A stretch of 4,234 nucleotides of DNA from IMG/VR virus record IMGVR_UViG_2713897140_000011, positions 1-4,234 of that record; one strand, given 5' to 3'. The notes under the pieces are model-generated. The model saw nothing but the letters and a program-made list of their open reading frames with translations. It ran no database searches and was not told where the DNA came from. This document shows positions 1,250-2,437 of the stretch, piece by piece. The first letter of the stretch is position 1, and each line of letters begins with the position of its first letter. Source of the stretch: a virus (lineage: Duplodnaviria > Heunggongvirae > Uroviricota > Caudoviricetes). Made by a program: the position numbers and the translations under genes.

Positions 1250-1275
1250 AAAAAGCCCACGCGTTTACGTGGGCT
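1250..1275 (-). terminator. Rho-independent terminator downstream of the toxin gene
   Basis: On the minus strand: GC-rich stem GCCCACG (rc of 1268-1274) / CGTGGGC (rc of 1255-1261), 6-nt loop, immediately followed by TTTTT (rc of 1250-1254). It lies 20 nt after the toxin stop codon (1295-1297). Confidence 0.6.
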
Positions 1276-1294
1276 GGTATGCATGACGTCAGGA

Positions 1295-1624
1295 CTAACC
1301 GATGAGTTTTAAATCAGCTTTTCGGTGTTTTTTCTGATCGGTATAAAAATTTTCATGTGGACCGATGCTAAGGAGGTAGAGCTCAAGTTTATCGTCAAGC
1401 CAGCTGTAACCCAGAAGCACCTGTTGATTATTCAGCTGAAATTTATGCACACGAAGAAAACTGAGGTCTCCTTTCTTTTGCGTTCCCAACAGAGGATTGT
1501 CAATTATTCTGTCGATCTCATCTTCCACAACTTTCAGTTGCGCTTCCGGGAGTTTACTCAGAGACTTTTCGAAACGCCGACTCTGATAAACATCAATTTC
1601 ACGACCTGTCTGTTCTTCTGACAT
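1295..1624 (-). CDS. Type II toxin, RelE/ParE superfamily (109 aa)
   Basis: Translation MSEEQTGREIDVYQSRRFEKSLSKLPEAQLKVVEDEIDRIIDNPLLGTQKKGDLSFLRVHKFQLNNQQVLLGYSWLDDKLELYLLSIGPHENFY... fits the RelE/ParE pattern: size, a basic N-terminal helix, NPxxG, and a C-terminal IGxHxxxY. It sits immediately downstream of, and overlapping, a ribbon-helix-helix antitoxin gene. Confidence 0.75.
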   Translation of the reverse strand: MSEEQTGREIDVYQSRRFEKSLSKLPEAQLKVVEDEIDRIIDNPLLGTQKKGDLSFLRVHKFQLNNQQVLLGYSWLDDKLELYLLSIGPHENFYTDQKKHRKADLKLIG

Positions 1625-1829
1625 AACGCGTTACCTTGTTGTGTCTGATTTCGCTTTGTGACAGCAGAACTTCGCTAATAAAACTGAATGGCAGATCTGG
1701 ATTATCTTCAGCTATACGACCAATCTTAGCCCAGTGCTCAATTTGTTTTGGTATGCTGCGACTTGCGGCATCAGCGTGAACCTTTACGTCACTGACGAAA
1801 TCATCGTCTAAACGGATGCTTGTTGCCAT
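1599..1829 (-). CDS. Type II antitoxin, ribbon-helix-helix (ParD/CopG-like), 76 aa from ATG 1829
   Basis: Translation MATSIRLDDDFVSDVKVHADAASRSIPKQIEHWAKIGRIAEDNPDLPFSFISEVLLSQSEIRHNKVTRYV... has an N-terminal beta-strand followed by two helices, typical of RHH antitoxins. A GAGAGG Shine-Dalgarno lies 6-11 nt upstream of ATG 1829. The ORF-track start at 1955 would add an implausible Cys-rich leader. Its 3' end overlaps the toxin start by 26 nt. Confidence 0.7.
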   Translation of the reverse strand: MATSIRLDDDFVSDVKVHADAASRSIPKQIEHWAKIGRIAEDNPDLPFSFISEVLLSQSEIRHNKVTRYVRRTDRS

Positions 1830-1863
1830 TATGGTTGCCTCTCTGTGGTTGTACTTCATGCGG

Positions 1864-1873
1864 TGCGTACGCA
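1864..1873. promoter_or_regulatory. Perfect 10-bp palindrome TGCGTACGCA about 35-45 nt upstream of the antitoxin start; candidate operator for TA autoregulation
   Basis: Palindrome read directly from the sequence, flanked by a TACGC direct repeat (1868-1872, 1874-1878). Type II TA operons are typically autorepressed at palindromic operators. No convincing -35/-10 pair was found. Confidence 0.2.
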
Positions 1874-1969
1874 TACGCTCTGGAAAAGCGCACCTTAAAC
1901 ATGCAACAAATTGTCGCAATATGCAATCTTTATTTCCGCAACAGGTAAACAGCATTCATTCCAGCTCCG

Positions 1970-2437
1970 TTAATTCAGACACTGCGTTCTGATGTATTCC
2001 TGAAGCGTTCTCAGTGCTGTCTGGTCTCTGATGATTCCGTCTCTGATACCGAGAACGTTTCGTCCAGCAACTGGAGAGAGTTCGACGCTGGCATCATTGC
2101 CCATGCCGGAGGCGCTGGAGGTTTCGGCTGAGGATGGCACAGGGCATTTTCCTTTGACGAGCACCCGACCACCATTATCAAGCTTGCGCCGAAGAGCATC
2201 ATTTTCAGCTTTCGCATCAGCTAACTCCTTCGTGTATTTAGCATCGAGTGCATCAGCAGAACGCTGGCGCTGCTGCATGTCAGTAATGGTTGCGTTCGCC
2301 AGCTTCAGTTCTCTTGCGTTTTTGTCGCGCTGCTCTTTGTAGGTAATGGCGTTATCACGGTAATGATTAACAGCCCATGACAGGCAGACGATGATGCAGA
2401 TAACCAGAGCGGAGATAATCGCGGTGACTCTGCTCAT
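1970..2437 (-). CDS. Rz: Rz i-spanin (inner-membrane spanin subunit), 155 aa from ATG 2437
   Basis: N-terminal half [59 protein letters not shown]...[19 protein letters not shown] is, from memory, nearly identical to lambda Rz, with an N-terminal TMD and coiled coil. ATG 2437..2435 overlaps the endolysin stop TGA (2436..2434). The ORF-track start at 2452 is a TTG and is rejected. Confidence 0.85.
2011..2217 (-). CDS. Rz1: Rz1 o-spanin (outer-membrane lipoprotein), embedded in the +1 frame entirely within Rz
   Basis: Translation [43 protein letters not shown]... has a signal peptide with lipobox (MVVGC) and a Pro-rich mature region. The N-terminus closely matches lambda Rz1 (MLKLKMML...VVGC...PPPPPAW) as I remember it. 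Confidence 0.8.

Follow-up and report, generated by a model that had tools for sequence, protein, structure and literature searches.

The stretch of DNA analysed here, called the window in the following, comprises all 4,234 nucleotides (nt) from positions 1 to 4,234 of the IMG/VR virus record IMGVR_UViG_2713897140_000011 (Caudoviricetes). According to the list of open reading frames (ORFs) and the sequence itself, every gene of the window lies on the minus strand. Directly behind the i-spanin gene Rz, two small genes encode a type II toxin-antitoxin (TA) pair, which is an ordinary, already annotated moron from a pair of protein families without an experimentally studied member. A RelE/ParE-type toxin and a ribbon-helix-helix (RHH) antitoxin, following Rz on the same strand, had been proposed in an earlier sequence-only reading of the window, and the positions of both ORFs relative to Rz agree with the ORF list and with the coordinates given by the prokaryotic genome annotation pipeline (PGAP). 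The pair and its translation signals are the following:

1599 to 1829, minus strand: antitoxin gene, 76 amino acids (aa), ParD_like family PF11903, ATG at 1829 and stop codon at 1599-1601.
1838 to 1844, minus strand: Shine-Dalgarno-like AGAGAGG of the antitoxin gene, read from the sequence, its AGAGG core conserved in alignments.
1295 to 1624, minus strand: toxin gene, 109 aa, ParE-like_toxin family PF15781, RelE/ParE fold, ATG at 1624 and stop codon at 1295-1297.
1599 to 1624, minus strand: out-of-frame overlap of the two genes, 26 nt, the toxin ATG lying within antitoxin codons Y69-V70.
1633 to 1637, minus strand: Shine-Dalgarno sequence AAGGT of the toxin gene, inside antitoxin codons K65-V66 and 8 nt before the toxin ATG.

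The toxin matches PF15781 over profile positions 1-87 of 87 (E 3.3e-33, 113.9 bits versus a gathering cut-off of 28) and the antitoxin matches PF11903 over positions 2-59 of 73 (E 2.7e-19, 69.3 bits versus a cut-off of 23). Both scores exceed the Pfam cut-offs by a wide margin and are therefore far beyond chance, and both proteins are thereby put in cognate type II TA families and not in unrelated ones. PF11903 is also matched by all 38 antitoxin homologues that were sampled. In PHROGs the toxin belongs to phrog_1213, a 'RelE-like toxin' of the moron category, and the antitoxin to phrog_16013 (E 3e-45), a family of unknown function; NCBIfam contains no model for either protein. The antitoxin gene stands directly upstream of the toxin gene in 95 of 96 related loci, and the pairing is co-oriented. 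In a prophage of Escherichia coli CFSAN029787 that is 100% identical to the window in this region, PGAP/RefSeq places the same pair at exactly the same coordinates under the names 'ParD-like family protein' and 'type II toxin-antitoxin system RelE/ParE family toxin'; names and coordinates match, and the same reading is therefore already present in public annotation. Two other ways of reading the frames were rejected. A longer antitoxin ORF (1599-1955, 118 aa) would add 42 residues that cover the conserved promoter/operator block described below, and homologues start with MATSIRL; all antitoxin homologues of 75-80 aa (n=272) begin with MA(T/I)S(I/V)RLD. An antisense ORF on the plus strand (1325-1621) and other small ORFs were discarded since the two conserved genes of the minus strand account for the region in full.

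The overlap of 26 nt, already remarked upon in the sequence-only reading as longer than usual, turned out to be a fixed property of the subfamily. Across 95 loci it amounts to 26 nt (n=44), 32 nt (n=50) or 23 nt (n=1), with a start-to-start distance of 205 nt between antitoxin and toxin in nearly all of them. Where PF15781 toxins are shorter (93-96 aa), their genes share 8 nt with those of the ParD_like antitoxins or lie 1 nt away, which marks the long overlap as a derived and fixed character of the 107-111-aa subfamily. It goes together with a 10-residue N-terminal extension of the toxin that is predicted to be disordered (predicted local distance difference test, pLDDT, 64; AlphaFold2). The nucleotides in the overlapping part are constrained: TAT, never TAC, serves as antitoxin codon 69 in all 64 distinct loci, and in each of these codon 70 (Val, Glu or Ala) starts with G, so that the toxin ATG is preserved. 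Antitoxin codon 65 is AAG in 43 of the 64 loci and never AAA, and GTN comes next (consensus GGAAGGTG). RNA around the toxin start shows no notable structure (z -0.21 versus shuffles). A start further downstream was rejected, as no in-frame ATG, GTG or TTG occurs before residue 13. From the overlap and the nucleotide constraint we infer that ribosomes finishing the antitoxin would cover the toxin start and that toxin synthesis would thus be held below antitoxin synthesis.

The AlphaFold2 model of the toxin (pLDDT 91.8) has the RelE/ParE (BECR) fold. In a Foldseek search of the PDB the best matches were Vibrio cholerae HigB2, E. coli RelE, Mycobacterium tuberculosis RelE1 and RelE2 and an archaeal RelE (probability 1.00, E 1.2e-5 to 4e-4); the ParE structures 6x0a, 5ceg and 8c24 appeared at rank 27 or lower (E 3e-3 to 9e-3). 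A PDB search with a profile built from 93 members of the toxin family retrieved RelE (E 0.002) and HP0892 but no ParE up to an E of 1, and hhalign gave the comparison of the family with RelE a probability of 89%. Toxins of PF15781 nest in the RelE-containing subcluster of PF_ParE (Gerdes, 2025, PMC11980606). Fold, profile and published phylogeny are thus all nearer to RelE and HigB2, and ribosome-dependent mRNA cleavage is therefore favoured over gyrase poisoning and appears to us the probable activity. Six polar residues of the toxin are near-invariant, namely K50, K61, H90, E91, N92 and Y94; all of them are present in the window copy and they would form the candidate active site. In the alignment K61, which is invariant, occupies the position of RelE K52, and the near-invariant H90 that of RelE R81; RelE Y87 lies outside the aligned region, and Y94 of the toxin is its likely counterpart. 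The family also possesses a conserved basic C-terminal tail, QKxHRKADLKLIG. Once freed by loss of the antitoxin, the toxin would most likely cut mRNA on the ribosome, as RelE and HigB2 do.

A different target would leave the rest of the cassette as described here and turn the toxin into a ParE-type poison of DNA gyrase. The Pfam names of the two families (ParE-like and ParD-like) speak for it, as do the ParE structures among the fold matches, the lack of a toxin counterpart for RelE R61 and K54, and the basic tail, which could be a target-binding element; the C-termini of ParE proteins matter for toxicity. We nevertheless regard gyrase poisoning as unlikely, since RelE and HigB2 outrank every ParE in the fold search, the family profile retrieves RelE and HP0892 from the PDB but no ParE, and the near-invariant five-residue HENFY motif together with the invariant lysine at the position of RelE K52 resembles an active site. 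The published phylogeny likewise groups PF15781 with toxins that cleave mRNA in a ribosome-dependent manner (PMC11980606).

Several known systems can be compared with the cassette. Like the window cassette, RelBE of E. coli K-12 is a two-gene type II module with the antitoxin gene first, and RelE is the best PDB profile match and a top fold match of the toxin. RelBE is likewise prophage-borne (Qin). On the other hand, identity to RelE is about 17-20%, R81 is replaced by histidine, and the antitoxin profile is without significant similarity to the RHH antitoxin RelB. The 26-nt overlap, the disordered N-terminal extension and the basic tail are specific to the subfamily of the window toxin. V. 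cholerae HigB2 is the best structural neighbour (5ja8, E 1.2e-5) with 22-25% identity and a length of 105-110 aa that resembles that of the toxin, and it exerts the activity predicted here, ribosome-dependent mRNA cleavage (PDB entry titles, literature). The order of genes in the window cassette is the reverse of that in HigBA2, as its antitoxin comes first, and this antitoxin is ParD_like. In HigBA the first gene encodes the toxin, and the antitoxin belongs to the helix-turn-helix (HTH) proteins. The ParDE systems of RK2, Caulobacter and M. tuberculosis (ParDE1) and the PaaR2-PaaA2-ParE2 system of E. coli O157:H7 share the fold superfamily and the antitoxin-then-toxin order and are the source of the Pfam names. 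They differ in that the toxin-family profile finds no ParE, the antitoxin has no similarity to RK2 ParD, gyrase poisoning is not expected from the published phylogeny of PF15781, and the third regulator gene of PaaR2-PaaA2-ParE2 has no equivalent at the window cassette. Two distant metagenomic ParD_like/ParE-like pairs (L105, 518-1482, and L106, 570-1485) have an HTH gene of the XRE type immediately upstream on the same strand, an arrangement reminiscent of three-component PaaR-PaaA-ParE systems, and one distant PF15781 toxin (P0257, locus L104) is paired directly with a SocA_Panacea protein and not with a ParD_like antitoxin.

In the AlphaFold2 model of the antitoxin, the N-terminus is extended, three helices follow, and the tail is basic. 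An RHH fold is weakly supported by the Pfam family, by the order strand-helix-helix in the prediction and by RHH matches of homologues that stay below threshold. The antitoxin ORF stands as the sequence-only reading had it, while the RHH label is not firmly established. The third helix and the basic tail may serve to neutralise the toxin.

Upstream of the antitoxin gene, the sequences of diverged cassette copies from many genera show no relationship to each other until a conserved block is reached that starts at window position 1931 (AAAGATTGCAT). Its family consensus, ATTGCAT-AA-TGCGACAAAATGTCGCA-TAAT, consists of the hexamer TTGCAT, a 17-nt spacer with a perfect 7-3-7 palindrome, and CATAAT or CATATT. 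The window contains the following candidate elements in this part:

1921 to 1926, minus strand: candidate -35 hexamer TTGCAT, conserved in diverged copies, 3 of 6 positions agreeing with the consensus.
1902 to 1918, minus strand: candidate operator TGCGACA-ATT-TGTTGCA, a 7-3-7 palindrome in the 17-nt promoter spacer that overlaps the -10 element; family consensus TGCGACAAAATGTCGCA.
1898 to 1903, minus strand: candidate -10 hexamer CATGTT, proposed from conservation and 17-nt spacing only; relatives have CATAAT, CATATT or CATACT.
1858 to 1891, minus strand: leader inverted repeats GCGCT-N7-AGCG (1891-1876) and ATGCG-N7-CGCAT (1874-1858), possible secondary operators.

Among 60 distinct upstream regions, taken from many genera, 30 contain the palindrome with no more than one mismatch in its arms, and in each case a TTGCAT hexamer lies beside it. 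The hexamers are too weak for a consensus scan, so that the promoter is deduced from conservation only. In the lysogen, this weak sigma-70-type promoter (TTGCAT, 17 nt, CATGTT) would drive an antitoxin-toxin mRNA ending at the hairpin at 1254-1275, and the ParD_like antitoxin, probably as an RHH dimer, would bind the spacer palindrome and repress its own operon by analogy with other type II systems. The inverted repeats of the leader are kept in copies from Escherichia, Yersinia, Xenorhabdus and Photorhabdus. At homologous positions in Yersinia (loci L012, L013 and L022), ATGCG-N7-CGCAT becomes ATGTG-N7-CACAT, that is both arms have changed together, and such a symmetric change is compatible with a co-evolving protein-binding site. 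The leader RNA (1830-1897) is not unusually stable (z -0.68); as its fold is not significant, the repeats are read as possible secondary operators.

The other end of the cassette and the two insertion junctions are marked by these features:

1245 to 1275, minus strand: intrinsic-terminator-like hairpin (1254-1275) and U-tract (1245-1253), from sequence, fold and junction alignment.
1950 to 1968, minus strand: degenerate leftover of the resident post-Rz terminator's 5' arm (GGAGCUGGAAUGAAUGCUG) at the right insertion junction, from the empty-site alignment.

The hairpin begins 19 nt past the toxin stop codon and reads AGCCCACG-UAAA-CGUGGGCU (1275-1254, 9-bp stem), followed by UUUUCAUAU; its folding energy is -16.1 kcal/mol (z = -2.68 versus shuffles). 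Over the whole window terminator-like sites are not more frequent than expected by chance (3 found versus 4.3 expected). A terminator behind the toxin gene is supported by its position and by its counterparts in diverged copies: cassettes in other genera possess their own hairpin and U-run after the toxin gene, with differing stem sequences. It is therefore probable that the ancestral cassette brought a terminator along, which recombined with the resident one. In the empty site of E. coli 2013C-3181 (L102), the Rz stop codon is followed by 3 nt, a hairpin (AGCCAGCAUGAUCGCUGGCU), UUUUUCAUAUC and then the region upstream of the KilA-N gene. On the left, homology to this empty site resumes at GGCUUUUUCAUAUC (window 1257 and below). 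With both junctions aligned in this way, the inserted DNA spans about 1258-1949 and interrupts the resident terminator behind Rz. After the toxin gene, the terminator is a hybrid: the interior of its stem comes from the cassette, and the phage backbone supplies the U-tract and the final bases of the stem (up to 1257). The clean terminator at 1250-1275 that the sequence-only reading had ascribed to the pair does exist as hairpin and T-tract, but it is not entirely the cassette's own. An 8-nt direct repeat, AATTCAGA (1238-1245 and 1972-1979), was considered as a target-site duplication and rejected, since both copies are backbone in the empty site. There, AATTCAGA lies near the T-tract and AATTCAAG at the Rz stop codon, and the insertion junctions map elsewhere.

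The cassette occurs in only 10 of 5426 complete E. coli genomes. A query with the joined flanks revealed 50 complete E. coli genomes that have both flanks within about 340 bp, some 40 bp from each other and without any cassette, and in prophages lacking it the Rz stop codon and the KilA-N gene are parted by a terminator only. Given the empty sites in 50 genomes, the cassette is an insertion into the post-Rz terminator. Its G+C content (40-47%) differs from that of the flanks (48-55%). In E. coli A34 (L003), the same cassette (window 1118-1933, 91.7% identity) resides between a lysozyme/Panacea-domain gene and an antirepressor gene; in the A34 sequence (8080-9787) it lies about 790 bp downstream of the Panacea-domain gene, which encodes a domain typical of antitoxins. 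In prophages of the Yersinia and Xenorhabdus types, relatives with 69-74% toxin identity are found between Q (or a DNA methylase gene) and holin-lysozyme-Rz. The view that the module is cargo and not a core lysis function is thus borne out both by the empty sites and by the presence of the same cassette elsewhere in other prophages. Morons are transcription units in their own right that have been inserted between genes conserved in phages (Cumby et al., 2012, PMC3594210). The cassette resembles them in its absence from the precise site in close relatives, its promoter-like block, its terminator, its distinct base composition and its orientation with the late operon; it departs from them in that its terminator is a hybrid with the resident one and its promoter is a candidate only. 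By established lambda biology, Q-modified polymerase would during lytic growth read through the cassette and its terminator into the KilA-N and head genes, and the cassette terminator would matter only for transcripts begun at the cassette promoter in the lysogen.

The surroundings of the pair are those of a lambdoid prophage. From base 140 onwards the window is 100% identical to the complete prophage of E. coli CFSAN029787 mentioned above. The first part of this prophage contains the repressor region, replication genes, ninH, Q and an array of Ile, Arg, Thr and Gly tRNA genes; the tRNAs are followed by an S21-type holin gene, a gene for a hypothetical protein of 209 aa, lysozyme, Rz and the TA pair, and the pair by KilA-N, an 85-aa hypothetical protein, terminase and head and tail genes. 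The neighbours of the cassette in the window are:

1970 to 2437, minus strand: Rz (i-spanin) gene, last core lysis gene and upstream neighbour, PF03245 (E 3e-30), start as in the PGAP 'lysis protein'.
2011 to 2217, minus strand: Rz1 gene, embedded in Rz, PF06085 (E 2.2e-21).
599 to 1096, minus strand: KilA-N/ORF11CD3 gene, downstream neighbour, PF04383 (E 1.8e-15) and PF10549 (E 2.9e-13), 165 aa according to PGAP with ATG at 1096.

The mechanically derived ORF of the KilA-N gene (599-1165, minus strand, 188 aa, GTG start) is longer than the PGAP call, and the KilA-N/ORF11CD3 protein matches the PADLOC candidate defence family PDC-S22 (E 1.5e-8). Between the S21-type holin gene (3666-3881) and the lysozyme gene (2434-2967), the 209-aa ORF (3033-3662, minus strand) finds its sole match in phrog_1085, a family of unknown function (E 3.9e-74), and none in Pfam or NCBIfam. 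The same place is taken by YdfR/DUF1327 or left empty in other prophages, and the ORF looks like a second insert within the lysis cassette. The 3' part of a tRNA gene (4177-4234, minus strand), cut by the window end, is the sole Rfam match (RF00005, 38.8 bits). In the identical CFSAN029787 prophage it is tRNA-Gly, the last of the Ile-Arg-Thr-Gly array between Q and holin; ARAGORN made no call for the cut gene. Positions 1-145 share 99.3% identity with the 3' part of a gene annotated as 'RHS repeat-associated core domain', which occurs in 3882 of 5426 complete E. coli genomes. Bases 1-400 are contiguous in none of these 5426 genomes, with prophage homology setting in at base 140, and the window thus begins at an rhs/prophage junction with about 6 nt shared, due either to a strain-specific rearrangement or to an assembly chimera.

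Beyond E. coli, toxin homologues with 61-98% identity are found in Salmonella, Klebsiella, Serratia, Yersinia, Photorhabdus, Xenorhabdus, Proteus, Vibrio, Aeromonas and marine gammaproteobacteria, and copies of the cassette also reside on megaplasmids of Pantoea/Duffyella. The genome scan for toxin homologues was based on alignment A6, since the broad alignment A4 was too diverse. In 55 species-level loci the neighbourhood comprises 118 Pfam families in 109 proteins, with few holins, endolysins, methylases or Q. Such a pattern is that of a mobile type II module of a generic kind, picked up now and then at the moron hot spots that flank lysis cassettes. For the prophage the benefit is most likely stabilisation or selfish persistence, and possibly the exclusion of other phages as well.

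That the cassette is kept for the latter purpose, as an abortive-infection or superinfection-exclusion system, has also been considered. Host shut-off by an incoming phage would deplete the labile antitoxin, and the toxin would halt translation before the invader completes its cycle. Hot spots for morons beside the lysis cassettes of several unrelated lambdoid prophages fit this idea, the promoter-like block and the terminator are compatible with expression in the lysogen, and phage defence is known for some type II TA systems (PMC11980606). We consider such a defensive purpose rather unlikely, however, because no PADLOC model matches either protein and most copies lie among unrelated chromosomal genes (one genome per species) and also on megaplasmids, which fits a generic selfish or stabilising module.

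Signs of decay bear on the question whether the window copy is an inert or decaying passenger, poorly transcribed and devoid of a phenotype. The -10 hexamer of the window copy is degenerate when compared with the family (CATGTT versus CATAAT/CATATT) and its palindrome contains a mismatch. Elsewhere, frameshifts in the 3' part of the toxin gene (loci L010 and L011) remove Y94 and/or the basic tail and leave the antitoxin intact, an IS1-like end replaces the antitoxin gene and the first 63 toxin codons at locus L021 (about 3900-4000), and IS600 has inserted between Rz and the cassette in FDAARGOS_943 (L002, 8837-9993). Even so, a mere passenger is highly improbable in the window prophage: both ORFs are intact and 100% identical in at least six complete genomes and two IMG/VR prophages, every near-invariant toxin residue is present, and decay at L010 and L011 strikes the toxin and spares the antitoxin, which implies that the toxin is harmful when active.

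Several results count against an active TA cassette of the kind proposed here. The palindrome of the window has one mismatch, both hexamers are poor (3 of 6 and 3 of 6 positions), and a consensus scan of the window called no promoter. In the alignment of the toxin with RelE only two of the catalytic positions are matched; K54 falls on Q63 and R61 on the invariant L70. ParE toxins share the fold and also have His-Glu near the C-terminus. The antitoxin model has no significant structural neighbour, and its profile has no detectable similarity to RelB or RK2 ParD. PADLOC-DB v2 contains no family for antitoxin or toxin at E up to 0.1, and a collection of phage genomes from sequenced isolates yielded neither a DNA match to the cassette nor a protein homologue. 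Furthermore, the PF15781 family 'remain[s] undescribed in the literature' (Gerdes, 2025, PMC11980606). Taking all this into account, we put the probability that the pair is a horizontally acquired, self-contained type II TA cassette of a lambdoid E. coli prophage, acting by the mechanism proposed, at about 0.7.

A more far-reaching idea, which we regard as speculative and quite improbable, is that the 107-111-aa gammaproteobacterial subfamily constitutes a distinct RelE-like, mRNA-cleaving clade with a Lys/His-Glu-Asn-Phe-Tyr active site, in which the fixed 26/32-nt overlap (toxin Shine-Dalgarno sequence in K65-V66 and ATG in Y69-V70) would permit translation of the toxin only when translation of the antitoxin falters. 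Repeated capture on either side of lambdoid lysis cassettes would then mean co-transcription with the lysis genes under Q antitermination and, if true, the module would take part in the lytic cycle or help to exclude rival phages.

As a matter of annotation the cassette is of ordinary value, since the TA names are already present in RefSeq and prophage-borne TA morons are common. A modest value lies in PF15781 and PF11903, neither of which has an experimentally studied member. The E. coli copy, located in an apparently complete lambdoid prophage, would be a convenient model for asking whether 'ParE-like' toxins cleave mRNA or poison gyrase, and the family-wide overlap of 26 or 32 nt offers a clean natural case of overlapping translation setting the ratio of toxin to antitoxin. 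The junctions within the terminator hairpin, finally, illustrate how phages may swap morons.

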